Below, in pieces: positions 4,333 through 53,093 of a stretch of 57,022 bases of DNA. Source of the stretch: a virus. Within the stretch, counting starts at the first letter, position 1. The number at the start of each line of letters is the position of its first letter. Location: UHGV virus genome UHGV-1526745; one strand, given 5' to 3'. Below the pieces are notes generated by a model. That model ran no database searches and was not told where the DNA came from. It saw only the letters and a list, made by a program, of their open reading frames with translations. Both the position numbers and the translations under genes were made by a program.

Positions 4333-6123
4333 TTAAACAATTTCGCTTAATTGCGTATCAGTTAATGCTTTGTGCCATACTCGAACATTTCTGACATGAC
4401 CAAATAGATGACGTTCTCCAGTATTTGTTTTACCACCGATACAAATAGTTGCTGAGCTTTTGATATAAGTCCAGGTTGTTTTTGTTTCGCTGGATATACG
4501 TCCGTTACTTATTGCACATGTAAATTGATTTGCTTTTACACGCATCCCTATAACCATTTTTTCAAGAGAAGCGTTTTCATTAATGTGTGGGCTTGAGCCA
4601 CCAATATCACAATAAGGGAATCCGTCATGATCCGTTGCACGACCGAAGCCAAGAATAATAGCTGCTCCGGTTTGATTACCGCTGGTTTCAAAAACACGTG
4701 GCGCTGCATTTGGCGTTTTGCGCCAGTTCTTATGTACCTCACAAAGAACCGTAAAAGGAAGATTATAAAGGTTATTCTTGATTGGGGCTGTCACCATATC
4801 GCTTGCGCGCGTCGCCGCCGTCGTTTCTGATATAATAAAAGATGATGCGCAAGGGCCATTTTCAACCTGGGGGGTAGCCAGATAAATATAGTCACCAGAT
4901 TCAACGACGCCACCAGATTTTGGTGCGTATTGTATTGCAGAGGTTATGTAAGTTTCTTCACTTGCTTGAATCGTTGCCTCTACAAAAATCCAGCCCGCAG
5001 CTTCATCTTTGTTAACTCGTGCGGTAAGCCTGTCGGCAGCTACACCAGTGATTTCAACCAATAAAGACCGCGTATTAACAATGGCATATCCAAGATTAGA
5101 TGAAGCGCTGCCATCGAAGGCTTCAAACCTGATCCTTAACAGGAGTTCCAGATCCGTTTTAAATCTGCACGATGTCGTCACACACTTATTATCGCCTGAT
5201 ACATCGACAGCCCCCGAGGTTGAAACTACTGCCATATTAAGGGCTGTACTTTGCCCAATTAATGATTCATTACAAACAAACTTTCCATAAGTAAAACCAA
5301 AACTATCAGTTCCAACCTCAGCGATATTCATATTTGCAGATTTACCCCAAGAAGCTGGAGTTGCTGAATTCAACATGTAGTTTGTTCGCTGACCTTCAAT
5401 CAATAAACCTTCTTTTTCAAATCGTGGCTCATTAATTTCCGCCGTTTTCAGTTCGCCAGATTTGTTGATATATGTTGCCGTTGATGCGCGACTGAAATTA
5501 ACCTGTTTATCACTGGCAACCTGAACCACATTATCACCAATCTTCACTTTTTTATAACCCGGAGAATAGCCCGTAATCATATCCAGCGAATCATTAAAGG
5601 GCATCCACACATCCGGCAGAGGCTGTAAAACATACGCGTAAGGCTGCGCCGTCTGATTGGCGTATTCGTGGGCTTCGTCTCTGTATGTCTTAGCTGAATC
5701 TGCGGCGCTTGTCGCTGTTGTTGCAGCGTTGGTTGCAGTTGTAGCTGATTCTGATGCTAATTTTGAGGCTGAAATTACATCTTTGTTGTCGCTGAAAAAC
5801 TCCACAGCGTCCGCTATTTCTGATTCTTTGCCCTGATAGTAACGCAGTGTTTCTGCAACATCCTGAGCAAGACCATCCACAGAGATCGAATCTGAAAGCA
5901 GGATGCTAAATTTAGTCCCAGCCGGAATAGACGGACTTGCCGCCGGAGTTACCGACAAACTTGTTGCGCTTTTTACTTCTGTAATTGAGAAAATCTGCAC
6001 CGGATTGCTAATGGCAATAAGAGTGCAACCAACTCTGATCAGAGATAACGCGGCATTGAATTCAGTCCCTGTTCCGGTAACTGTGTTTCCGCTAACGGCT
6101 ATCGTGCCAGTTGTGTAAATCAT
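4333..6123 (-). CDS. tail fibre protein (receptor-binding, LamG/ConA-like C-terminus)
   Basis: 596-aa ORF after J-like gene; Gly/Thr/Ser-rich N-terminus, Ala/Thr-rich linker, lectin-like C-terminal region. Confidence 0.7.
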   Translation of the reverse strand: MIYTTGTIAVSGNTVTGTGTEFNAALSLIRVGCTLIAISNPVQIFSITEVKSATSLSVTPAASPSIPAGTKFSILLSDSISVDGLAQDVAETLRYYQGKESEIADAVEFFSDNKDVISASKLASESATTATNAATTATSAADSAKTYRDEAHEYANQTAQPYAYVLQPLPDVWMPFNDSLDMITGYSPGYKKVKIGDNVVQVASDKQVNFSRASTATYINKSGELKTAEINEPRFEKEGLLIEGQRTNYMLNSATPASWGKSANMNIAEVGTDSFGFTYGKFVCNESLIGQSTALNMAVVSTSGAVDVSGDNKCVTTSCRFKTDLELLLRIRFEAFDGSASSNLGYAIVNTRSLLVEITGVAADRLTARVNKDEAAGWIFVEATIQASEETYITSAIQYAPKSGGVVESGDYIYLATPQVENGPCASSFIISETTAATRASDMVTAPIKNNLYNLPFTVLCEVHKNWRKTPNAAPRVFETSGNQTGAAIILGFGRATDHDGFPYCDIGGSSPHINENASLEKMVIGMRVKANQFTCAISNGRISSETKTTWTYIKSSATICIGGKTNTGERHLFGHVRNVRVWHKALTDTQLSEIV

Positions 6124-6162
6124 CGCAATGACTCCATTATGTTAATTAACGGAATAATTCTA

Positions 6163-6183
6163 CCATTTTGTGATCTGTGTTGC
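6163..6183. promoter_or_regulatory. conserved motif TTTTGTGATCTGTGT upstream of tail fibre gene
   Basis: Shares TGTGATCTG(T/C)GT with sites at 12858..12873 and 17964..17979. Confidence 0.35.
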
Positions 6184-6304
6184 ATTTTATGCTTGCACAA
6201 AATGTATTTATTGATTTACGTCAATACAATAAATCATTTACAGTGAATGTAACTTGCCACAATTTATGATGTAAATTATTGGCGTAAAAATAAAAACAAT
6301 GCAT

Positions 6305-6333
6305 AAAAACGGGGCTTATACCCCGTTTTGTTT
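6305..6333 (-). terminator. rho-independent terminator after J-like gene
   Basis: Hairpin ACGGGG-CTTATA-CCCCGT flanked by A-tract and T-tract (bidirectional potential). Confidence 0.5.
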
Positions 6334-11458: not shown

Positions 11459-12138
11459 TTGTCAGATCTCCATATTGAGTTGGTCTGTCGAACATACGCG
11501 GGCCGCATTTGTTCGCGGCGGCTTAACAGTCCGGCATTGTCATGATGCAAAACAGTGTTATCGCCCAGGTAAATCATCGCGTGACATGGGTCAGCGCCTT
11601 TAAACGGCTGGCGGATAATCACATCACCAGGCTGAATACTTTTCGCGTCAACCATGAAAAACCCGTTCAATGGCAGGTTTTTTATGTACAGGTTTTCCCC
11701 ACGCAGCCACCATCCGTCGTGGCGTTCAAAATCCGGTAGATCCACGCCGCAAAGGTGATAGGCGTCACGAAAAAGCGAGTAGCAGTCTGTTTTCCCGTGC
11801 TCAAATTTACGGCCTAACAGGTGCGCCACCGGGCGGAATTTTCTAACCCTGCCACCGGAACACAAATACCACGGCAGGCCTGAAATAACCTGCTGTTGTC
11901 GATCCCGTGCTGACAATACCAACGAATTGTCAGTATGGGAGTGAAAAACGGCAGTTATAACGCCTAATTCGTCAGCTTTGATATAATCGTCAGGCGAGAT
12001 TTTAAAGCTGTTGTGCGGCGTTTCAGACACGTTGGCGCACGGGTAAAAATAATCGTTATCTATCACCAGCCCGCACACTTCCTCGCACTGGTGGGCTGCC
12101 GCATAGCGAATCATTTTATCTTCAAGTGCCATAATCAA
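11401..12138 (-). CDS. tail assembly protein K (lambda gpK-like, NlpC/P60 + JAB-type)
   Basis: 245-aa ORF between L and I homologues; Cys/His motifs consistent with gpK family. Confidence 0.75.
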   Translation of the reverse strand: MIMALEDKMIRYAAAHQCEEVCGLVIDNDYFYPCANVSETPHNSFKISPDDYIKADELGVITAVFHSHTDNSLVLSARDRQQQVISGLPWYLCSGGRVRKFRPVAHLLGRKFEHGKTDCYSLFRDAYHLCGVDLPDFERHDGWWLRGENLYIKNLPLNGFFMVDAKSIQPGDVIIRQPFKGADPCHAMIYLGDNTVLHHDNAGLLSRREQMRPAYVRQTNSIWRSDKCSNLDLRAIFEDITARCV

Positions 12139-12839
12139 CCCACCTTACTGGACCCAGGGAAGCACGAAATCGGTAACGGATTCGGGCGTGGAAAACGCAA
12201 ACGGCAACCGCTAAGGCGGTGGCTGCATTTGTCCAGCTTTGGATCACTGGTAGATTCGTCTTTATCGGTAGCTACAGGTCCACCACTATATCCGCAACCG
12301 TCGCCGCGATATTGCCATTGGCAAACGTCAGCGAGGATTGTGCGCCCTGGGATAACCGCCTTGTCAGCATCAATTGGCGTTGACAGTTCATATTGCACCT
12401 GGTCGGCTGTTTCTTCGCTCATCGCCTCAACGACGTAAAAAGACACCGCCTCGATAGATGGATCTGCATCCGGGTTGCCGTTTGGGAAGTTGATGGCGTC
12501 CAGGTATTTTACTTCCACCTGGCGGCGTGTAACCTTCATTCCTCGCAGGTCGTTGAAATCGTTGTTCATCCCGGTGATTAGCCCGCCAATGTTGGCTACT
12601 ACCATCTGCGGGCGTGAGTAAACGCCTTCGTTTTTCATTTCGAAGCCAGTGGCCTCGATTGGGTAGCTGTTGTAAGTCACTCCCTTCCAGATAACCGGGC
12701 CGTAATAGCCATTCGCTCCGGAATGGAAGCGGATAACCTCGCCACCCATGGGCGTGAGGTCTAATTCAAACAAGTCAATGACCGCGCCGACTCCGGCATC
12801 GACGGAATCAATAATCATCTCTCTCGGAATATTGCGCAT
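12135..12839 (-). CDS. minor tail protein L (lambda gpL-like)
   Basis: Track ORF 12135..12872; ATG at 12839 after AAGGTGAG; C-terminal CxxxxC...C motif and overall similarity to gpL. Confidence 0.8.
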   Translation of the reverse strand: MRNIPREMIIDSVDAGVGAVIDLFELDLTPMGGEVIRFHSGANGYYGPVIWKGVTYNSYPIEATGFEMKNEGVYSRPQMVVANIGGLITGMNNDFNDLRGMKVTRRQVEVKYLDAINFPNGNPDADPSIEAVSFYVVEAMSEETADQVQYELSTPIDADKAVIPGRTILADVCQWQYRGDGCGYSGGPVATDKDESTSDPKLDKCSHRLSGCRLRFPRPNPLPISCFPGSSKVG

Positions 12840-12857
12840 TTTCTCACCTTGTAATTT

Positions 12858-12873
12858 TGTGATCTGCGTCACG
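12858..12873. promoter_or_regulatory. CRP-like binding site TGTGAtctgcgTCACG
   Basis: Matches TGTGA-N6-TCACA consensus at 9 of 10 positions; centred ~63 bp upstream of predicted start of plus-strand promoter at 12893..12921. Confidence 0.4.
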
Positions 12874-12892
12874 CTAAATCATACCAAAACGG

Positions 12893-12921
12893 TTGATCGC
12901 GATTTTTACAATATGTATATT
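12893..12921 (+). promoter_or_regulatory. sigma70-like promoter for plus-strand moron cluster 1
   Basis: TTGATC-N17-TATATT upstream of ATG at 12938. Confidence 0.4.
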
Positions 12922-12937
12922 GTACTCAAAAGGAAGC

Positions 12938-13123
12938 ATGGTTAACAAAATGGCGCTGAGGTGTGAAATGGATGATAAGGTGTGGAGGTTGACGGTGTTC
13001 CTTGCTGATGGCAGGAAAATGACTGTGGCCCTGTATAAAGATGAAGGCGAGGCACTTACCGACGCGCTCTTACTCGCTGAAGATGAACGCGTTTTGGGGT
13101 ACAGGATCGAACCTGTCAAATGA
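12938..13123 (+). CDS. hypothetical moron protein (61 aa)
   Basis: ATG with AAAAGGAAG RBS inside track ORF 12893..13123; opposite strand to tail operon. Confidence 0.4.
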   Translation: MVNKMALRCEMDDKVWRLTVFLADGRKMTVALYKDEGEALTDALLLAEDERVLGYRIEPVK

Positions 13124-13495: not shown

Positions 13496-13744
13496 ATGGG
13501 GCGGCGCAATCACGGCGATTATGTGTACACGCTGAAACAGGCCGCCCGCCTCATCGGTTATCATGAGCACGAATTTATTGATTTGCTGATTGAGCGCGGG
13601 ATACTGTACCAGGTCTGTTTAACGCTGTACCCGAAAGCGAAATACCTACAGGAAAAGTTATTCATCATCATGACGGATGAAAACCAGGTTAATCATTCAT
13701 TCGTCACTGATAAGGGATTGACATATTTGAAGGGGGCGTTATGA
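13496..13744 (+). CDS. hypothetical moron protein (82 aa), possible HTH
   Basis: Track ORF; segment YTLKQAARLIGYHEHEFIDLLIERGIL looks helix-turn-helix-like. Confidence 0.45.
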   Translation: MGRRNHGDYVYTLKQAARLIGYHEHEFIDLLIERGILYQVCLTLYPKAKYLQEKLFIIMTDENQVNHSFVTDKGLTYLKGAL

Positions 13745-13819: not shown

Positions 13820-13847
13820 AACCCCGCCGTGGCGGGGTATTTTTTAA
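13820..13847. terminator. rho-independent terminator ending moron cluster 1
   Basis: Hairpin CCCCGCC-GTG-GCGGGG followed by TATTTTTT. Confidence 0.5.
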
Positions 13848-14390: not shown

Positions 14391-14423
14391 AAAACCCCCA
14401 TAAGTCACATTTTGTATATATCT

Positions 14424-14447
14424 TTACGCGCCTCTACGCGAAAAATG
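14424..14447. promoter_or_regulatory. conserved 24-bp element TTTACGCG-N4-CTACGCGAAAAAT (copy 1)
   Basis: Near-identical copy at 27213..27236; both immediately upstream of minus-strand genes (M, portal). Confidence 0.35.
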
Positions 14448-14558
14448 AGATCTTAATCACAATGATTATAGCTAGTTTACAAAATGGCTTCACATAGTGC
14501 GCAACAAGATGTATATAGAAAGCAAGAAGAAAAGCAGTACCAACGAAGGAGGCCAAAA

Positions 14559-14714
14559 ATGAAACGCTATGTAGTGGTAATGCTGAACAACGCATTCGAA
14601 CAAGTGGAAATAGCAATCGTTAAGGGCTTCGACGACGCATTCAAATACGGTCAATTCATGATGAATGCAAAAGAAGATGAATACCGTGATTTCTTCCTGA
14701 AGGCACTCAACTAA
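14559..14714 (+). CDS. hypothetical moron protein (51 aa)
   Basis: ATG after GGAGG RBS within track ORF 14484..14714. Confidence 0.35.
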   Translation: MKRYVVVMLNNAFEQVEIAIVKGFDDAFKYGQFMMNAKEDEYRDFFLKALN

Positions 14715-14731
14715 GGATGATGGGGTGAGTT

Positions 14732-14986
14732 ATGAAACTGGTAGCGATTGATAAAAACCTGAAAGTACAGAAAAACGCACAAGACAGGATTATCAAGAAA
14801 GGGAAGGAACTGCTTAAAGCATTTTTGAAGAAAGAGGCGCGCCCCAAAAAGTTACGTGATGGTTATGGCTTTAAATTCGACATCAACCCTGACTGGAGGC
14901 TGTTTAGCGAAGACCTAAAAGTCTGGTTAATTATCGATCATCTGGAATATAACAGGCACTGTGGAGTCAAAGGGGTGCATAAGTGA
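14732..14986 (+). CDS. hypothetical moron protein (84 aa, Lys-rich)
   Basis: Track ORF; no family recognised. Confidence 0.45.
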   Translation: MKLVAIDKNLKVQKNAQDRIIKKGKELLKAFLKKEARPKKLRDGYGFKFDINPDWRLFSEDLKVWLIIDHLEYNRHCGVKGVHK

Positions 14987-15575: not shown

Positions 15576-15596
15576 AAGGCCGCTTATAGCGGCCTT
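15576..15596. terminator. bidirectional rho-independent terminator (after TMP and after moron cluster 2)
   Basis: Hairpin AAGGCCGC-TTATA-GCGGCCTT with T-tract on minus strand and A/T flank on plus. Confidence 0.5.
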
Positions 15597-15600
15597 AGTG

Positions 15601-17946
15601 TTATTTGCGGCGCGGTTGCAACATCCCGCCAGGTCTTTGCGATTCCCTTGTTATCATCTTCATTGCTACACGTTCCATTGTTGATTCAAGTCTGCGGCTG
15701 TCTTCTTCGCTAAATCCGTTTGTGGTTTGAATACTGATACTGACAGGCATACTAAAACCGCCACCGCCGCCAATATCACGACCAGGAATAACCCTGCCGT
15801 TCTCGCCTGGGATCATATATTGGTTGCCGTTAGACGTCTGGAATAGCTCCGGCCTGTTGTGTTCCCCTACGCGGTACATATTGCCACCAATGACGCTACC
15901 ACCATTAAAGCGACCGCCGCCGAAAATTGACGTAGCCAGCGACATGATCGCAGTGAGCGCAGCCGAACCAGCCGCCGCCCAGCTACCGCCAGTTGATGCA
16001 GCCGTTGCCGCCGCCGCCGGGGCCGCCGCCGCCGCGATGCTTCCCTGAGCGGCAACCGCGCTTGCCGTTGTACTTGCTTGAGTTGCCTTGCTTTGTGTTT
16101 CCATCATGATCTGATCTGCTATCCAGTCGGCTGCTATATCAGAAAGTCTGTTGCCAATATTCCCTAGTATATTGCTCCCTAAGTTAGCAAAAACATCGCT
16201 CAATGATTGAGTACCGTTAAGCAGGCCGACAAGCGCATTGCTCATGCCACCTTTAAGGCCATTAACGCAATCACCGATCAGGCCGTTTGTCTGGCTTTGC
16301 GCCTGCCATTGCTCCCATTTCAGATCGCGGATCTGTTGCTCATAGGCTAACAATGCCTGTTTCTGTTGCGCTTCGGTAGCGCCCAGGTCGATAAGCATTT
16401 GCTTACGGACGGCCCATTCATTTTGTACCTGCTGAATAGGGTCAACCTCGCCTTTAAGCTGATTCATCGGGCTTACTATTTGCGCCCATTTATCACGCAA
16501 TTCATCTACCGGAATTTGGGCTAATTCTTCCTTCAGTTCCTTACCTATCCCTTTTTGCGCGGCGCGGTACTCAAGGAGGGTGATTTTACCCTGGGCGAAT
16601 GCAGCATCAATGGCCTTGCCGTTCTCTAACGCTTTGCGCATGGCGGCGGCGTCTTTATTGTACTGGTCAGAAACGCTTATACCCTTGTCACCAAGCGTAT
16701 CCTCTTTGCTTTTCTTGCTGCCACTCTTCTTACCCTTTTTAGGCTTATCAACTGGCTTGTCGAATCCGGTGATCTTGCCGTCGTTGGCTTCTGCCTGTTT
16801 CTGCATAAACTCATCATAAGCGGCAGTCGCGTTTTTAATGTCGTTTGCAAAAGTCATGACTTTACCGACTGTAGGGCCGAATTTCTTCTCATTGTTGCTA
16901 TTTAGTTCTTCCTTGCGCTTATCTACAACCTCCTTCATCCATTTGTAGGCGTCCATAAGTGCCTTGATTGGCATCACCATTGCGATGATCTTCTCTGCCA
17001 CCTCGCCAGCCTTCACAGCCACATCATCAAACATGTCGATGAATTCGCCACCAGCCGTTTTGAGTGTATCGAAGCAGGTTTTAGCGAATTTAGCGCCCTC
17101 ACCTAACCCCTTAACGCCTTTTGTGATTAAGTCGATAGCTGAGACTACGCCATCTGATACGCCGAAAAGATCATCAAGCTGTTCAACAAGACCCATGATT
17201 TCGACTTTAAGCTCATTGATAGCCATGCCGGATGTGCGCGGCAACTGAGCAAACTGCTCGTTTGTTTCCTGCGTAGCCGCCTGGATTGCGTTAACCATCC
17301 TTTCTGCCGTGATCTTGCCGTCCAGCATTTCGGCGCGGAACTGGCCCATAGATAACCCCATCTGACGGGCCATTGTCTGTACGATGGTCGGGGTGTTTTC
17401 AAGTAGGCTGTTAAATTCTTCAGCACGCAGCACGCCGCCGTCTATAGACTGGCGGAACTGGCGCATAGAGTTAGACATCTGTTCCGCTGATGCGCCGCCT
17501 AACGCCCCCATTTTCTGAATAGTGCCAACCAGGTTAAGTAATTGCCCTTCCGTAGCTGACGTGTTCTTCAGTGAGATGGCAAGACCTTGCCATAGCTCGC
17601 CAGTATCCTTCAGGCTTTGCCCCGTTTCCCTGGATATTGCTTTCAGGCCGTCGAAAACCCGTCCGGCGGACTCCGCATCGCCCGTAAGCATTTTGATTTT
17701 TACGCGAAGCATTTTTGCTTGCTCCGCCATATCCATAAATTGGCGCACAGCCTCGGCAGCAATTAGCAAATGGATAACCCTGGTCAGTGCTTTGATGGAT
17801 GTTTTCAGGGTGTTTACCTGGCGGTCAGCCTGTTTTGCGCCGCGCTCTATACGGTCAAAGGCCTGGTCTGCCTGTCGTTGTGCAACGAGAAGTTGACCAG
17901 TTTTTGCATCAACTTCGTAATAAATTGTACCTACACTGGTAGCCAT
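15601..17946 (-). CDS. tail tape measure protein
   Basis: 781-aa ORF, Ala/Gln-rich helical protein at lambda H position. Confidence 0.85.
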   Translation of the reverse strand: MATSVGTIYYEVDAKTGQLLVAQRQADQAFDRIERGAKQADRQVNTLKTSIKALTRVIHLLIAAEAVRQFMDMAEQAKMLRVKIKMLTGDAESAGRVFDGLKAISRETGQSLKDTGELWQGLAISLKNTSATEGQLLNLVGTIQKMGALGGASAEQMSNSMRQFRQSIDGGVLRAEEFNSLLENTPTIVQTMARQMGLSMGQFRAEMLDGKITAERMVNAIQAATQETNEQFAQLPRTSGMAINELKVEIMGLVEQLDDLFGVSDGVVSAIDLITKGVKGLGEGAKFAKTCFDTLKTAGGEFIDMFDDVAVKAGEVAEKIIAMVMPIKALMDAYKWMKEVVDKRKEELNSNNEKKFGPTVGKVMTFANDIKNATAAYDEFMQKQAEANDGKITGFDKPVDKPKKGKKSGSKKSKEDTLGDKGISVSDQYNKDAAAMRKALENGKAIDAAFAQGKITLLEYRAAQKGIGKELKEELAQIPVDELRDKWAQIVSPMNQLKGEVDPIQQVQNEWAVRKQMLIDLGATEAQQKQALLAYEQQIRDLKWEQWQAQSQTNGLIGDCVNGLKGGMSNALVGLLNGTQSLSDVFANLGSNILGNIGNRLSDIAADWIADQIMMETQSKATQASTTASAVAAQGSIAAAAAPAAAATAASTGGSWAAAGSAALTAIMSLATSIFGGGRFNGGSVIGGNMYRVGEHNRPELFQTSNGNQYMIPGENGRVIPGRDIGGGGGFSMPVSISIQTTNGFSEEDSRRLESTMERVAMKMITRESQRPGGMLQPRRK

Positions 17947-17963
17947 GATTTAACCTCATGCAA

Positions 17964-17979
17964 AAATGTGATCTGTGTA
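17964..17979. promoter_or_regulatory. conserved motif AAATGTGATCTGTGTA (CRP-like left half-site)
   Basis: AAATGTGATCT matches the left half of the CRP consensus; right half does not. Confidence 0.35.
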
Positions 17980-17986
17980 TCTATTT

Positions 17987-18027
17987 TATACAAAATGGCT
18001 TTACTTCAACGACTCCATTTTGTATAA
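17987..18027. promoter_or_regulatory. perfect 12-bp inverted repeat TATACAAAATGG-N17-CCATTTTGTATA
   Basis: Read directly; sits between TMP start and plus-strand lipoprotein gene. Confidence 0.45.
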
Positions 18028-18073
18028 GGAAGCCAAAGGGAAAGGTCAGTAAATCAAGTTAGCGTGGTGGGTT

Positions 18074-18733
18074 ATGAAACGGTTAGCAAAAGTGGCAATG
18101 ATTGCGGCGGTATTGGGTCTGGTTGGTTGCAATGAGGATAATGAAAAAGCGCCTATAGTGACCAATCAAGAACAACAAGCATTAGCAGAGAAAAATGCTA
18201 AATGGCTTGCAGAACAACAAGCAAAACAAGCCGCATACGATGCACAGTTAGAAAAAGAAAATGCTGGTAAACAGTGGCTTGTAGTTGAAAGAAAAGATGA
18301 TATGCAGGACGCAAAAAACGTATTCCTTTTTGTGAAAGCAGAACAATTCAGCGGAAGTCTTGATGCTTTCCCGACACTGAAGGCACAGGATAAGAATAAA
18401 CCGGTATTAACAATCGCTTGCCAGGGTAATAAAACAAAAATGTTCGTAGCATGGTCACACCATGTAACTGACGCCGGGGACACTACTTATATTAACTACC
18501 GGATCGGCGTTCACAAAGCTGTAGCTACTGAGTGGGGGCGGTCAACTAATTATAAAGCTCTTGGATTATGGGATGGCAAAAAAGCCATCCCAATGATTAA
18601 AAAAATGGTTAACGAAAAACAATTCATCATTGAAGTAGTGCCGGAAGCTGGCGACATTGAGAAAGCAGTGTTTAACATTGATGGTCTTTATAACCACATC
18701 GACAAAGTGAAAAACGCTTGCAACTGGAATTAA
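18074..18733 (+). CDS. lipoprotein (219 aa) moron
   Basis: Signal peptide with LVGC lipobox; GGTGGG RBS. Confidence 0.6.
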   Translation: MKRLAKVAMIAAVLGLVGCNEDNEKAPIVTNQEQQALAEKNAKWLAEQQAKQAAYDAQLEKENAGKQWLVVERKDDMQDAKNVFLFVKAEQFSGSLDAFPTLKAQDKNKPVLTIACQGNKTKMFVAWSHHVTDAGDTTYINYRIGVHKAVATEWGRSTNYKALGLWDGKKAIPMIKKMVNEKQFIIEVVPEAGDIEKAVFNIDGLYNHIDKVKNACNWN

Positions 18734-18743
18734 GGGGTAAATC

Positions 18744-19118
18744 ATGAAAAACATAATCAAAGCGGCTCTCATTGGTGTTATGGCTTTAGCTCTTACAGGG
18801 TGCGCAAGATCAACTGATTTCGTTAAGTTAGCTGATAAAAAATTGCAAGTTGGAATGACTTGTGAGCAAGTGAATAAAATAATGGGGGAACCACAAAGAA
18901 TCGAGCATGACGGTAATTATAGTTATCACGTATGGTATTCAGTAACCAGCACGATAGGATTTACTTACATGGATGTTGAAGAATTATCCCCTTCAAGGGT
19001 TATCGCAAAGTTTGATAACTGCATCCTAAAAGAATGGAAAGATCGCAGTAAGGCAAAGTCTGTATACAATACAATCACACACAGTTCACCAGGTACAGCA
19101 ATTAAAGATTTCAATTAG
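18744..19118 (+). CDS. lipoprotein (124 aa), BamE/SmpA-OmlA-like
   Basis: Signal peptide with LTGC lipobox; QVGMTCEQVNKIMGEP resembles SmpA/OmlA motif. Confidence 0.55.
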   Translation: MKNIIKAALIGVMALALTGCARSTDFVKLADKKLQVGMTCEQVNKIMGEPQRIEHDGNYSYHVWYSVTSTIGFTYMDVEELSPSRVIAKFDNCILKEWKDRSKAKSVYNTITHSSPGTAIKDFN

Positions 19119-38873: not shown

Positions 38874-39033
38874 AATGCTCTCTCCTTTTTCAGGTGATTT
38901 TTACGCATTTCAGCGTTACCGGATTTTTAAAGAGCATTTTGTTTGTTTGAAGTATACAAAACGGATACATGCGAACAAACAATAAAGCGCCATTATGTGA
39001 TCCGCATCACACAATGACGCCATTTTGTAAACA

Positions 39034-40436: not shown

Positions 40437-40769
40437 TTAACGGTATATCAAAACAGCCCGTTTCTTTCTTTGGGCTTCCTCCCGCTCCGTTAATATTTGC
40501 TCCGCTTTTAGCGCGTTATAGCTAATCAAATCAATTAGCGTGTCTGTCGGATCTGATTTATTGCTTAAAATGGCCTCTAAACGCGCCTCCTTGAGACAAA
40601 TTAGCAGATCCCATACATCAAGCGGGGTTAAATCTGCTCCCTTCTTAGCGTTGTAAATAGTGGCTATTTTTGGCGCTGATTTTTCCTCTTTTTTGTCGTA
40701 GCCGTTTTGTTTACCTCTTTGCTCTATGGTTTCCGCTGCAAGTCTCAATAAATCTGCTGCCTTAGTCAT
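40437..40769 (-). CDS. hypothetical protein
   Basis: Track ORF 40437..40787; internal ATG chosen. Confidence 0.4.
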   Translation of the reverse strand: MTKAADLLRLAAETIEQRGKQNGYDKKEEKSAPKIATIYNAKKGADLTPLDVWDLLICLKEARLEAILSNKSDPTDTLIDLISYNALKAEQILTEREEAQRKKRAVLIYR

Positions 40770-41301
40770 TATCTGCACCTCTTGCATATAGCTCTTTACG
40801 TGTTATCTGCGTGAAAATACATTCATGTCTGCACCGTGGATGCCAGATCAAGAACAAGCTCCCCTTATTGTTTCCGCTTGCTGGTTTACCCGTCGCGGCA
40901 TTAATAAACGCCAGCCGCCCGCGCGTGATTAATCGGCATTCATTTGCCGTCTCCACGCCGTTCATAAACCAACTAACAGAAGTGTCGGCTGGCAATAACA
41001 TTACACAGCCAATATGATTTCGGTGGTGTTCAAACGCCGCCTTATCAACGAATGGTCCCGGATTAGAATATGGTGGATTCATCCAGACATATTCACCAGG
41101 CATCGCCACCGCTCCCCACGGGTAATTAAGCGTGTTCATTTCTTCGGTTATATATCGCGGAACTAATGCATTTGCCTTGTTTGCCGCCACGTCCGCGACG
41201 AATTCGAATTCCCGATCCATTCCTCTAAAAACAGGTTTCGGCGTCTGCCATAGGTCTTTTATTTCTTTCGGCGTATGACTGCCGCCGTAATCATTTTTCA
41301 T
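40762..41301 (-). CDS. phage-type DNA N6-adenine methyltransferase (Dam family)
   Basis: NPPYS catalytic motif; 179 aa. Confidence 0.8.
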   Translation of the reverse strand: MKNDYGGSHTPKEIKDLWQTPKPVFRGMDREFEFVADVAANKANALVPRYITEEMNTLNYPWGAVAMPGEYVWMNPPYSNPGPFVDKAAFEHHRNHIGCVMLLPADTSVSWFMNGVETANECRLITRGRLAFINAATGKPASGNNKGSLFLIWHPRCRHECIFTQITRKELYARGADND

Positions 41302-45852: not shown

Positions 45853-45998
45853 TTAATCTCCCGTGCTGTTAACACTATGTATAAGGCTTTATTCGCGGCG
45901 CTCCACATTTCGGCATCGTGAAGCATTTCCGCTACTGCCAGTTTGAATTGAAGCGCCTGAATAACCATAATGTCATCTCCGGATGTTTACATTTTGTA

Positions 45999-46289
45999 TT
46001 AATGGTAGCGGACTTTATCCAGGGGTTTTTCCCCTAAATGGCGTGGTTGCGTTGCGTGGTAGTAGCTGCCGCTTTCATTTTCCGTATACCATTTTACTGA
46101 TCCTTTGCGACGTTCTTTAATGCTATTTGGTTTGCATCTTTCCTCGTTTGCAAATCGAATAGCTTTATCCACATTGTCTGTTTTATTGATTGCAGGTGAT
46201 GATTTTCTTTCGTTTTCTCTTTTTATCCTTCTGCGTTCCCTGGCATTCATTTTGCTATCACATTTACCATATATAATTGTAACGCTCAT
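45999..46289 (-). CDS. putative N-like antitermination protein (arginine-rich motif)
   Basis: First gene of leftward operon; MNARERRRIKRENERK resembles lambdoid N ARM; start may be internal (46250). Confidence 0.35.
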   Translation of the reverse strand: MSVTIIYGKCDSKMNARERRRIKRENERKSSPAINKTDNVDKAIRFANEERCKPNSIKERRKGSVKWYTENESGSYYHATQPRHLGEKPLDKVRYH

Positions 46290-46750
46290 AATCTGATCTC
46301 CGTATATCCTTGATGATACTTAATAAAAAATCATCTTCGTTAATTGCCGCACTTCCAGCGGCTGACCAGATTGTTAATGAGCGGCTTAACATCTTTCAAC
46401 TAATCCCGCAATCATCGCCGTTCCCGGCGTGACCTTGCTCACTCCAAGCAAGCTGACTCGTCGCCTTGCGTGCGGTTTCGTGGGGGATGTAACGCTTTAA
46501 ACACCCCATGCGCCTTGTTATCAGTGCCGCTTTCGGTCCCCCATCGGGGAGTTACTCCACGGTTGACAAGGTGTTAAGCCTGATTTTTAAAGTGCCAGGA
46601 AGTTGCTTTTGTTACCTGCGCCCTTCCTTTGACTCGCAATATACGCCCCGTAAAACATCGAGTCAATCCATTTTGTATACTTTTTTAAAATATTTTATAT
46701 GCCATTGATATTTAAATAATAAATAACGTTTTCTGTTTACGTTTTGGTGT

Positions 46751-47439: not shown

Positions 47440-47742
47440 CGCTACCCTATAACCTCAAAAAGTTTGATGCAAGTCACAAAACGTGTATTTTAAGCCTTGA
47501 TCTTAAAATTCCATTTTGTAAACTTGCAGACAAGGTAAGGCCATACTTGCAAAGACGCAAGGAAAAAGATAACGGAAGGCACAAAAAGGCACTTACCTTA
47601 TGCTCTTTAAAAATCCGGTGTCGCTGCGAAGCGAAAAACAAATATCACGCAACGGCGGGATCTGTTGAGCGGTCAGTCACTGCTATCTAATGCTAATGGG
47701 ATGCCCGCCCGCGCGTTCACTCTAACCATAGGAGAAAATGCG
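47440..47742. promoter_or_regulatory. right operator/promoter region
   Basis: Divergent intergenic region; inverted repeats CTTGCAGACAAG and CTTGCAAAGACGCAAG (47523..47562) plus CCATTTTGTA motif. Confidence 0.4.
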
Positions 47743-50500: not shown

Positions 50501-50534
50501 TGTATACAAAATGTAAACCTGAGGAATTAACATT

Positions 50535-51653
50535 ATGTCGCAAAGAAAAATCAGCGATGAGCAATTGATCGCTGAATATAACAACGGTTTAACGTACAAG
50601 CAGATTGCTGAAAAATATGGCATGTCAAAACGCAATGTCGAGCGCCTGGGCGCAAAACTGGCGAAACGTGGTTTATTATCAACACGCCGCGCTCCTGGTT
50701 TTGGCGTCAATGGCGAGTCGTTGCTAGTCGATAAGAACGGCAATGTTATCATGCGCTGGATTAAAACAGCCCGTGACCGCGAAGAAATGGAACAGCTAAT
50801 GGAAGCGGCCCGCGACGCTTTCACTGATGAAATACCACGCGCGGAGGCTGTGCCAGTGCCTGAAATTGATTTTCAAAAAAGCCTGGCACTTTATCCGGTG
50901 TTTGATCTGCATATCGGGGCGCTTGCTCATAAAGCTGAATGCGGTGAGAGCTACGATACTGGGATCGCTGAGCGCGTGTTGAATGACTTCTTTGACTACG
51001 CTGTTGGCGCTGCTCCGATGTCTGAAAAAGCTGTTTTACTTCTCGGCGGTGATGTGCTTCACACTGACGGCCTGTTACCAGTGACGCCATCAAGTAATCA
51101 CGTTTTAGATTGTGATTCACGCTACGCAAAACTGGTTTATGTGGCGATCCGGTCGGTCCGGCGTGCGGTCGGGAAGATGTTACTAAATCATAAGGATGTC
51201 GAGATCCAGGTATTATCCGGTAATCACGACCAATCAGGTATGATCTGGCTACGTGCTGCGCTTGCGGCTTTTTACGAAGATGAGCCGCGCGTGACTGTTG
51301 ACGTGTCACCTGCCATTGTCCACCACACACAGTATGGCAAAACATTCCTTGCTTACCACCACGGGCACACTATCAAAAAGCCGGAAAATTTATTGTCTGC
51401 TTGCGTAGCTGACTGGCGGGAGGATTTCGGAAGGTCTGTGGCTGTTTACGCTCACACTGGACATCTGCACCATCAATCAGTTGTTGAAACATCACTTGGA
51501 ATAGTTGAGCACCACGGCACATTAGCTGGCAAAGACGCATATTCAACTAATGGCGGCTGGCGGTCGCGGCGTCTGGCAGCGGTGATTATTTACAGCCCGG
51601 ATCATGGGGAAATTGGGCGCTTTGTTTATTACCCTGAATATTCCATTTTGTAA
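50535..51653 (+). CDS. HTH domain fused to calcineurin-like metallophosphoesterase
   Basis: N-terminal LTYKQIAEKYGMSKRNVERL HTH; DLH, GGDVLHTDG, SGNHD and TGHLHH motifs. Confidence 0.6.
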   Translation: MSQRKISDEQLIAEYNNGLTYKQIAEKYGMSKRNVERLGAKLAKRGLLSTRRAPGFGVNGESLLVDKNGNVIMRWIKTARDREEMEQLMEAARDAFTDEIPRAEAVPVPEIDFQKSLALYPVFDLHIGALAHKAECGESYDTGIAERVLNDFFDYAVGAAPMSEKAVLLLGGDVLHTDGLLPVTPSSNHVLDCDSRYAKLVYVAIRSVRRAVGKMLLNHKDVEIQVLSGNHDQSGMIWLRAALAAFYEDEPRVTVDVSPAIVHHTQYGKTFLAYHHGHTIKKPENLLSACVADWREDFGRSVAVYAHTGHLHHQSVVETSLGIVEHHGTLAGKDAYSTNGGWRSRRLAAVIIYSPDHGEIGRFVYYPEYSIL

Positions 51654-51671
51654 ACCGGAGGCAATAACATA

Positions 51672-53093
51672 ATGGTAACTGAGCAAATAAACTCACTACG
51701 GCAGGAACGTGAAGCGTCAGTTATCGGCGGGCTACTGTTAGGTGGCCTTACTCCTAACGCGCAAGATGTTCTCGCCACACTTGATCCTGAAGTGTTCACG
51801 ATCCCGCTTTATAAACGTGCGTTTGAAGTTATCCGGGCGCAAGCCAGAAACAGAAATCTTATCGACGCGTTATTGGTTGGCGATGAGATTGGCAATGAAA
51901 ACTTTGTACCGCTAATGCAAACGGCACGATCGTGCCCTTCTGCTGCCAACCTGAAAGGATATGCGCAACTACTACAGGAAGAACACCAGCGTCGGCAAAT
52001 GCTGGAACTAATGGAAGACATTCGCTACAAGCTGGAAACAGGGACGCTTGAAGTCGTCAGGGAGACGATGAAAGATTTTGATTCCCGGTATTCAAAATTA
52101 AAGGTAACAAAAGATCAAATTATCCCGGTGCTGTTGCGCGATGCGGTCCAGGAATACACGGAAGTGTTAAGTAAACGCATGGAGTGTGGCGTGAACTCTG
52201 ACAACATCAAAACAGGGATTGACCCACTCGACGAAATGTTAGGCGGCATTAACGCTACTGATCTGGTGCTTATCGCCGGACGCCCAGGGTCTGGTAAATC
52301 GGCGTTGGCGTTGGCAATTGCCCGCGCGGCGGCTGAACGCCCATACCCTGGAGGCGAAGGTCAGCGGGTCGGCGTTTTGCTGTTCACGCTTGAAATGTCG
52401 CTCGATCAGATGACTGAACGCGCTATCGCTGGCGCAGGGAACTTGTCAACGGATTGCTTACGTAATCCGGTAAAACTGGATGACGAAGGATGGGCGCACG
52501 TTGCCCAGGGAATGAGCGCACTTGCTGATCTCGATGTGTGGATTGTTGATGCATCACAGTTAACTGTCGAGGAAATACGCGCCACAACTGAACGAATGAA
52601 GCAGGATTATCCCAACCTGGGTATGGTAATGATTGACTACATCGGGTTAATGAAGCTGGCTAAGGCAGAACGTCACGATCTCGCTGTAGGGCAATTGTCG
52701 TGGTCATTGAAAATGATGGCGAAAGAATTGCGCGTACCAGTGGCGGCGCTGGCGCAATTATCCCGCCGCGTCGAGGAACGACCGAACAAGCGACCGAACA
52801 ATTCTGATCTGCGCGATTCCGGCAATCTTGAACAGGACGCAGACCGGATCATCATGGTATACCGCGACGGCTACTACAACGAACAATCTGTTGCACGCGA
52901 ATACATGGAGATTATCGTTTCAAAAAACCGTCACGGAAAAACCGGGACTGTTTACCAGCGTTTTGACGACAACGGCAACATATTACCGTGTGACCAGGCC
53001 CGCGCGGCGTCAGCTTGCATCCAGTCAATGCAACAACGTCCGGCGGTAAGCCGATTCTCGCCACGAAACAACCAGAATAAAGCATCTTTTTAA
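51672..53093 (+). CDS. dnaB: replicative DNA helicase (DnaB family)
   Basis: 473 aa; Walker A GRPGSGKS; DnaB-type N- and C-terminal domains. Confidence 0.9.
   Translation: MVTEQINSLRQEREASVIGGLLLGGLTPNAQDVLATLDPEVFTIPLYKRAFEVIRAQARNRNLIDALLVGDEIGNENFVPLMQTARSCPSAANLKGYAQLLQEEHQRRQMLELMEDIRYKLETGTLEVVRETMKDFDSRYSKLKVTKDQIIPVLLRDAVQEYTEVLSKRMECGVNSDNIKTGIDPLDEMLGGINATDLVLIAGRPGSGKSALALAIARAAAERPYPGGEGQRVGVLLFTLEMSLDQMTERAIAGAGNLSTDCLRNPVKLDDEGWAHVAQGMSALADLDVWIVDASQLTVEEIRATTERMKQDYPNLGMVMIDYIGLMKLAKAERHDLAVGQLSWSLKMMAKELRVPVAALAQLSRRVEERPNKRPNNSDLRDSGNLEQDADRIIMVYRDGYYNEQSVAREYMEIIVSKNRHGKTGTVYQRFDDNGNILPCDQARAASACIQSMQQRPAVSRFSPRNNQNKASF

Follow-up and report, generated by a model that had tools for sequence, protein, structure and literature searches.

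Conserved CRP-type sites in four control regions of the tail module of an mEp021-like prophage: putative host-regulated switches for accessory cassettes

Introduction

In class I CRP promoters of Escherichia coli, of which lac P1 is the type, the activator site is centred at −61.5, and centres at −71.5 and −82.5 also occur; in general, CRP site centres are expected at −41.5, −61.5, −71.5, −82.5 or −92.5 from the transcription start. UP elements are contacted by the alpha C-terminal domain of RNA polymerase at −38 to −59, and their proximal subsite, AAAAAARNR, lies directly upstream of the −35 hexamer. CRP sites are also shared by divergent units, as in the malEp/malKp, araBAD/araC and glpTQ/glpACB regions, and the cyaA P2 promoter is repressed by CRP over its start. 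On the phage side, the late operons of HK97, lambda and others carry morons, which are independent promoter-gene-terminator units. A literature search that combined morons and CRP turned up no relevant work.

The mEpimmI phages are gut coliphages that were recognised in 2025 as a new group at family level, and a CI-like repressor, N-like and Q-like antiterminators and three nut sites were described for the mEp021 group (PMC11893012). Promoter motifs, operators, CRP sites and the control of the many accessory genes are absent from that published description (PMC11893012). The control regions of the tail module analysed here resemble the divergent CRP regions of E. coli in that a single CRP-type site is found between back-to-back units and could act on both. 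They differ from them in that one arm is a phage tail block normally read from a Q-dependent late promoter.

Materials and Methods

The analysed DNA, called the window below, is one stretch of 57,022 nucleotides. CRP-type sites were scored by consensus matching only, over the 10 positions of TGTGA-N6-TCACA. Orthologous control regions were gathered from 41 IMG/VR contigs of the group and from four GenBank phages. The distinct sequences aligned were 23 for region A (three divergent ones were removed), 33 for region B, 38 for region C and 28 for region D; these relatives are close (about 86% DNA identity), so the conservation counts do not correspond to independent events.

Results and Discussion

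The prophage and its tail module

The window is a whole prophage, reversed relative to the mEp021 record, which runs from the tail fibres on the left to the integrase gene (55591-56838). Its tail region shows about 86% DNA identity to the mEpimmI temperate coliphages mEp021, mEp010, mEp013, mEp044, mEp515, mEp554 and MagusPhagus, and the prophage is an mEp021-like member of this group. The tail module region turned up in 32 of the 5,426 complete E. coli genomes searched, none of them identical to the window. In every mEpimmI member this module is split at four fixed places by plus-strand cassettes of small genes. The ORF matches agreed with the gene context (tail fibre, L and tape measure) that had been given in the preliminary description of this DNA.

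4333-6123, minus strand, side tail fibre gene match (ORF homology)
6124-6333, place A, divergent region between tail fibre and J
6306-6329, bidirectional terminator at the end of region A and of the J gene
12135-12839, minus strand, minor tail protein L (homology)
12840-12938, place B, divergent region between L and the M-like block
13496-13744, plus strand, cassette B, KilAC antirepressor fragment
13821-13838 and 15576-15596, cassette terminators
about 14393-14558, place C, divergent region between M and the tape measure gene
14559-14986, plus strand, cassette C, 51-aa gene followed by a ParE-like toxin (PF24732, E 8e-11)
15601-17946, minus strand, tape measure protein (homology)
17947-18073, place D, divergent region between the tape measure gene and the DUF6246 gene
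18074-19118, plus strand, cassette D, VasI-like protein (type VI secretion family, E 1e-15) and BamE-like small protein

The gene pair of cassette C looks like a toxin-antitoxin pair. Cassette A is missing in the window, where the control region (6186-6333) runs into the bidirectional terminator without any ORF, an arrangement found in none of the sampled relatives. In the relatives one and the same control region is followed by different cassettes, and cassette A is absent from two of them. As in morons, the cassettes are small accessory genes inside the tail module which have their own terminators and their own predicted promoters, with conserved hexamers, and which vary and are exchanged between relatives. 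They are unlike morons in being transcribed against the late operon at four fixed positions and in sharing a conserved control module with putative sites for host global regulators.

A repeated word and the CRP-type sites

Three near-identical elements had been noticed at tail-gene junctions, and the counts bore this out. The word TGTGATCTG(T/C)GT has three exact matches in the 57 kb window, all on the plus strand.

6169-6180, plus strand, 12-mer copy TGTGATCTGTGT
12858-12869, plus strand, 12-mer copy TGTGATCTGCGT
17967-17978, plus strand, 12-mer copy TGTGATCTGTGT

When up to one mismatch was allowed, the 12-mer had five matches against 0.40 expected, a number reached in none of 100 shuffles; the two one-mismatch matches (30448 and 40801) are inside coding sequence and look fortuitous. 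For the 8-mer TGTGATCT there are six occurrences in the window against 1.46 expected. A chance origin of the motif was ruled out by the shuffles and by its conservation in relatives.

The word TGTGATCT coincides with positions 4-11 of the E. coli CRP consensus AAATGTGATCTAGATCACATTT. Scoring against the two-half-site consensus gave one site in each of the four regions, including one (site C) that the 12-mer search misses.

6169-6184, site A TGTGATCTGTGTTGCA, upstream of the tail fibre gene, 8 of 10 positions (9 of 10 in some relatives)
12858-12873, site B TGTGATCTGCGTCACG, upstream of minor tail gene L, 9 of 10
14446-14461, site C TGAGATCTTAATCACA, upstream of the M-like minor tail gene, 9 of 10
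17967-17982, site D TGTGATCTGTGTATCT, upstream of the tape measure gene, 7 of 10 (8 of 10 in most relatives)

The four regions, which together cover about 600 bp, hold two sites with at most one mismatch to TGTGA-N6-TCACA against about 0.02 expected, the expectation for a whole 57 kb window being 1.98. Matches with up to two mismatches were not enriched window-wide (29 against 24.6 expected) and, therefore, the signal is local and not genome-wide. Each of the four sites is located in a divergent intergenic region facing a plus-strand cassette; the fourth site (C) had been missed in the preliminary description. That description had also read the copies as one near-consensus CRP site accompanied by half-sites: the CRP part is supported, site B matching at 9 of 10 positions, but the half-site part does not, since A and D have conserved partner halves.

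A location just upstream of the ribosome-binding site, which had been claimed for all three copies, was found for B and D, whose motifs end 18-20 nt from the ATG, but not for A, which is 46 nt from the ATG and is separated from the tail fibre gene by a conserved extended −10. With centres 26.5 and 28.5 bp from the ATG, sites B and D are too near the tail genes to act as upstream activator sites for them, and this role was discarded for both. The idea of a shared regulation is plausible, but its likely targets would be the opposite-strand cassette promoters and not the tail genes.

All four CRP-type sites contain a GATC (6172, 12861, 14449 and 17970), which is common, though not invariant, in the relatives. 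The phage encodes a Dam-family N6-adenine methyltransferase (40762-41301, minus strand; PF05869, E 2e-52).

Conservation of the sites in relatives

The motif search in related phages, which had been suggested as a check, showed that the two-half-site pattern and its placement are kept in the orthologous regions. In A, B and C the two 5-bp half sites are fixed or nearly so while the 6-bp spacer varies freely, and in D one half site is kept (23-38 relatives per region). Site A keeps TG(T/C)AA and TCACA around a varying spacer in the 23 distinct relatives. Site B, which reads CGTGA-N6-TCACA on the gene strand, has no half-site change in 33 distinct relatives, whereas five of its six spacer columns vary, giving at least 11 spacers (CGCAGA, TGGCGA, TTGAGA, CGGCGA, CAGCGA, TTTAGA, CACAGA, CTCAGA, CTTAGA, TGCAGA and CGCATA). 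Site C (TGTGA-N6-TCTCA on the minus strand) has nearly fixed half sites and a hypervariable spacer in 38 distinct relatives. Finally, in the 28 distinct relatives of site D the TCACA of the minus strand is invariant and the spacer variable, with a weak partner half (AGAGA or AGATA). Fixed half sites around a variable spacer are the signature of the site of a dimeric regulator. The GYGT tail of the 12-mer is spacer, and the likeness among the three copies of the window is not kept in relatives; the 12-mer as a functional unit was discarded, its 3′ part being variable spacer.

The half sites, their 6-bp spacing and the flanking T-C-T correspond exactly to the host CRP consensus. We are fairly confident that these are sites for a dimer of the CRP/FNR family. 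The weakness of site D in the window (7 of 10) speaks against the CRP reading. A regulator encoded by the phage itself could also recognize a TGTGA-N6-TCACA-like palindrome and tie the cassettes or the tail genes to the phage programme. The several uncharacterised small proteins of the phage would be compatible with it, as would a second abundant motif, CATTTTGT(A), whose presence next to the sites and at PR indicates that a phage-specific regulatory vocabulary exists. We regard such a regulator as improbable, given the exact agreement with the host consensus and given that no CRP-family or other candidate domain appeared in the 20 phage proteins scanned with Pfam, which are a part of the proteome. 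Besides, the published description of the group names only CI-like, N-like and Q-like regulators (PMC11893012).

The repeats had also been proposed to be recombination or duplication scars at insertion points, or they could be linkers devoid of any regulatory role. It is true that the control regions flank cassettes which differ between relatives, and that a near-identical promoter segment, TACAAAATGGCTTYAC, is common to regions C and D and points to a duplication of promoter modules. However, in relatives with differing cassettes the break in homology falls past the rightward −10, about 60-70 bp away from the motif and not at it, the control regions as wholes are conserved across the group, the GYGT tail is hypervariable spacer, and neutral DNA would not fix two 5-bp half sites around a free 6-bp spacer in four regions. 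The scar interpretation at the motif itself was consequently abandoned and we give it very little probability. What survives of it is that conserved control regions flank exchangeable cassettes, for which they could serve as recombination linkers, and that the C and D control modules may be paralogous.

Predicted rightward promoters of the cassettes

On the plus strand the regions have a common layout, consisting of the CRP-type site, an A/T-rich stretch, TACAAAATGG, one base, the −35, a 17-bp spacer and the −10.

12893-12921, plus strand, predicted cassette B promoter from the promoter scan: TTGATC, 17 bp, TATATT, with the centre of site B at about −62.5 (−63.5 in most relatives)
12908-12925, 18-bp perfect palindrome TACAATATGTATATTGTA (ACAA...TTGT type) over the cassette B −10, conserved in relatives
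14478-14517, plus strand, inferred cassette C promoter: TACAAAATGG, C, TTCACA (14489-14494), 17 bp, TATATA (14512-14517)
17989-18028, plus strand, inferred cassette D promoter: TACAAAATGG, C, TTTACT (18000-18005), 17 bp, TATAAG (18023-18028)
46678-46636, minus strand, strong predicted early promoter PR: TACAAAATGG, A, TTGACT, 17 bp, TATATT

In the 33 relatives the −10 of the cassette B promoter is invariant and its −35 almost so (TTGATC or TTGATA), and region D keeps a 20-nt stretch, TCTATTTTATACAAAATGGC, and the word CATTTTGTATA unchanged throughout the 28 relatives. The promoter scan recovers the cassette B promoter alone. The proposed −10 hexamers of C and D do not have the usual T at −7 and are absent from the list of the scan. 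Promoter-like sites in the region are no more numerous than in shuffles and, therefore, the promoter calls rest on conservation and not on the scan. One base separates TACAAAATGG from the −35 at the promoters of C and D and at the predicted PR, and most relatives have this arrangement at B too, where the window has a diverged copy, ACCAAAACGG. TACAAAATGG agrees with the proximal UP subsite AAAAAARNR at seven of nine positions. The motif is also present in other positions and orientations, so that it may instead be the site of a specific protein. The palindrome TACAATATGTATATTGTA is probably the operator of a repressor, possibly one encoded by the cassette.

The distance between the site centre and the start of the −35 hexamer (its first base) is 25.5 bp in D, as in the geometry of lac P1, 35.5 bp in C, one helical turn further, and 27.5-28.5 bp in B. 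It is free of indels in the relatives for D and C and differs by 1 bp among relatives for B. With respect to the predicted starts, site D would be centred at about −60.5 and site C at about −70.5, and site B, at −62.5 to −63.5, is 1-2 bp off the classical −61.5. The regions are like class I CRP promoters in their 16-bp core of two inverted pentamers 6 bp apart, with TGTGATCT as the consensus half site, in the location of the sites about 60 or 70 bp upstream of predicted sigma-70 promoters, and in the A-tract placed where the alpha C-terminal domain would sit. They are unlike them in the spacing of B, in the two atypical predicted −10 hexamers and in the overlap with leftward −10-like elements.

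Leftward elements and the tail genes

On the minus strand, −10-like hexamers are placed 0-4 nt upstream of the sites, so that sites B, C and D would be at about +2 to +6.

6157-6165, minus strand, predicted extended −10 TGGTAGAAT of the tail fibre gene
12878-12886, minus strand, extended −10-like TGGTATGAT just upstream of site B, whose centre would be at about +6
14465-14470, minus strand, −10 TATAAT located 3 nt upstream of site C, whose centre would be at about +5

The tail fibre gene probably has a promoter of its own, since a strong −10 is found at this position in every relative (TGGTAGAAT, TGGTAAAAT, TGGTATAAT or TTAAAAT), even where the upstream DNA is unrelated. Site A spans −34 to −19 of this predicted promoter, with its centre at about −26.5. 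The TATAAT at C is invariant in 38 of 38 distinct relatives while both of its flanks vary, and the −10-like TATAAAAT at D is nearly invariant. The TGGTATGAT element at B is kept in most relatives, but a few of them (TGTGAT, CGCGAT) no longer have its key A at −11 and, consequently, the constraint is weaker than on the rightward promoter. No usable −35 was found for the leftward elements of B, C and D.

These elements raise the possibility that the sites are operators of leftward tail promoters, where CRP or another protein, at about +2 to +6 (B, C and D) or −34 to −19 (A), would silence secondary tail promoters and would affect the cassettes no more than incidentally. The −10-like hexamer next to each site, its conservation at C, D and B, and the conserved extended −10 of the tail fibre gene immediately downstream of site A agree with this proposal, and the invariant TATAAT 3 nt from site C and the similar elements at B and D fit a repression of tail promoters at least as well as an activation of the cassettes. 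On the other hand, besides the missing −35 hexamers and the changes at −11 in B, the upstream −10-like element in A is not conserved, and the tail genes need no promoters of their own because the phage has a Q antiterminator. In addition, the tail-fibre −10 persists in the relatives L098 and L100, which have no such site. Altogether we consider it unlikely that the sites are tail-gene operators only.

The sequence of B and D falls between the candidate leftward starts and the ribosome-binding site, where it could form a small hairpin or a protein-binding site in the 5′ leaders of tail-gene mRNAs. Nevertheless, the possible stem has just 4-5 bp, with mismatches in C and D, it displays invariance and no compensatory change, and an Rfam search of the window gave no match anywhere. 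We give such an RNA element hardly any credit.

Region A and its FNR-type site

Region A contains a second site in addition to the CRP-type one.

6212-6225, FNR-type site TTGATTTACGTCAA, 9 of 10 positions of TTGAT-N4-ATCAA, centre 6218.5

This centre is 42 bp from that of site A (6176.5) in the window and 41 bp from it in the commonest relative sequence, a distance of four helical turns. Several relatives have a perfect TTGAT-N4-ATCAA (e.g. TTGATATAAATCAA) and others have TTGAC as left half; the spacer varies (ATAA, ATAG, AAAA, ACAG, GTAA) between conserved half sites. Two cassette types have a −10-like hexamer (GATATT, GATACT) at class II distance from the FNR-type site, the fit being poorer in a third cassette type and in the window. 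With FNR at −41.5, CRP would be at about −82.5 or −83.5. Region A is like class II FNR promoters and class III promoters with CRP plus another activator in its TTGAT-N4-ATCAA, in the class II −10-like hexamer of two cassette types and in the CRP-type site four turns upstream, but it is unlike them in that the window keeps only the control region and the terminator, the cassette being gone. If its rightward promoter were active, a short non-coding transcript of about 70-100 nt would be made. In relatives the FNR-type site is found upstream of a lipoprotein (superinfection-exclusion) cassette.

L098 and L100 have no divergent cassette A; in its place, a co-directional gene and a terminator lie upstream of the tail fibre gene. 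Both phages are devoid of the CRP-type and of the FNR-type site and keep the tail-fibre −10. The absence of both sites together with the cassette ties the sites to the cassette side.

Other motifs in the prophage

Among all 8- to 10-mers of the prophage, the mostly intergenic word CATTTTGT(A), or TACAAAATG, shows the strongest over-representation. CATTTTGT occurs 21 times (3.5 expected) and CATTTTGTR 15 times (2.2 expected).

6164 (plus), 6196 (minus), 14408 (plus), 14478 (minus), 17989 (minus), 18016 (plus), 39021 (plus), 42556 (minus), copies of CATTTTGT(A) / TACAAAATG
45990 (plus), 46669 (plus), 47512 (plus), 50505 (minus), 51644 (plus), 55605 (plus), 16419 (plus), further copies of the same word
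45975-46000 (minus), 50505-50537 (plus), 51648-51674 (plus), near-identical translation-initiation region with TGTAAAC, a GGAG-type Shine-Dalgarno and ACAT(T/A)ATG

Inverted pairs of CATTTTGT(A) surround the CRP-type sites in A, C and D and, in the form TACAAAATGG, the word stands directly beside the −35 at the predicted PR and at the promoters of cassettes C and D. Four copies of CCATTTTGTAAAC are present. The word CATTTTGT(A) may be a UP-like A-tract or the site of a phage protein. As to a possible CI operator, the PL and PR of the window and of mEp021 are too similar to be informative, and as to a −10 family, a hexamer ending in T comes after some of the copies only. Several copies are start-codon contexts (ACAAAATG) or belong to the repeated translation-initiation region, and some of the CATTTTGTA / AAATGTAAAC matches are due to this region being shared by three intercistronic junctions.

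A perfect CRP-consensus site, TGTGATCCGCATCACA, was found in intergenic DNA at 38996-39011, upstream of a nutR2-type boxA (TGCTCTTTAAAAA) and beside CCATTTTGTAAAC. About 59 bp downstream there is a candidate promoter (TTGTTC, 16 bp, TATACT).

38924-38936 and 38951-38956, minus strand, features linked with this CRP-type site

Its counterpart in mEp021 is TGTGATCCACATCACG, and on this sequence CRP may also act on the operon leading to the Q antiterminator. Between the repressor gene and PL, the sequence TTTGATGCAAGTCACA (47463-47478) has one mismatch to the CRP core and an FNR-like left half, and together with CCATTTTGTAAACTTGCA it forms a 27-nt imperfect inverted repeat (47468-47528), with ACTTGCA present three times nearby. 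In mEp021 TTTGATGCAAGTCACA is identical and the partner arm nearly so. This repeat and ACTTGCA are candidate immunity operators. Finally, a boxA-like TGCTCTTTAAAAATCC that precedes a GC hairpin whose 3′ flank is A-rich (nutL type; 47600-47640, plus strand) and GCACTTTAAAAATCAGG (nutR1 type; 46579-46596, minus strand), the latter downstream of the predicted PR, agree with the three nut sites of mEp021 (PMC11893012).

Proposed model and significance

From the sequence we infer which protein binds, the promoters, the start sites and the direction of the effect. We think it rather probable that the sites are host CRP sites, accompanied by an FNR site at A, in conserved control regions, where they would activate the cassettes in the manner of class I sites and would be so placed as to obstruct leftward starts too. 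The direction of the effect, activation or repression, is held less firmly than the assignment to a CRP/FNR-family dimer. According to this model, one CRP-type site would serve each control region that separates a leftward block (tail fibre; L-K-I-J; M-like; tape measure) from a rightward cassette. CRP-cAMP bound about 60 bp (D and B) or about 70 bp (C) upstream of the cassette starts would recruit RNA polymerase through the alpha C-terminal domain, and the A-tract that abuts the −35 (TACAAAATGG in C and D, ACCAAAACGG in B) would assist this recruitment. In the tail-fibre region CRP would act together with the FNR-type site at a class II position. Since the sites cover the leftward start regions (B, C and D) or positions −34 to −19 of the tail-fibre promoter (A), their occupancy would also hinder the initiation of the tail genes.

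A bolder version of the model is that the regions are bidirectional switches, in which CRP, with FNR at the tail fibre, turns the cassettes on and at the same time shuts secondary promoters of the tail fibre, L-J, M and tape measure genes, CATTTTGT(A)/TACAAAATGG being a family-specific promoter element common to the switches and PR. We put this forward as speculative and probably too far-reaching. If it were true, the carbon and oxygen status of the host would set the balance between lysogenic conversion and Q-independent expression of the tail genes.

The elements themselves are of a textbook kind: they enrich the annotation of a phage family that was defined recently and give rise to testable hypotheses, but not to a new principle. 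The activation model would also explain how a tail operon tolerates four head-on transcription units at fixed positions. If CRP and FNR do bind, the accessory genes of this family, among them superinfection-exclusion lipoproteins, a ParE-like toxin module and secretion-related proteins, would be under the control of carbon and oxygen sensors of the host, and the mEpimmI phages would offer a testable example of prophage genes wired into the global regulation of their gut host.
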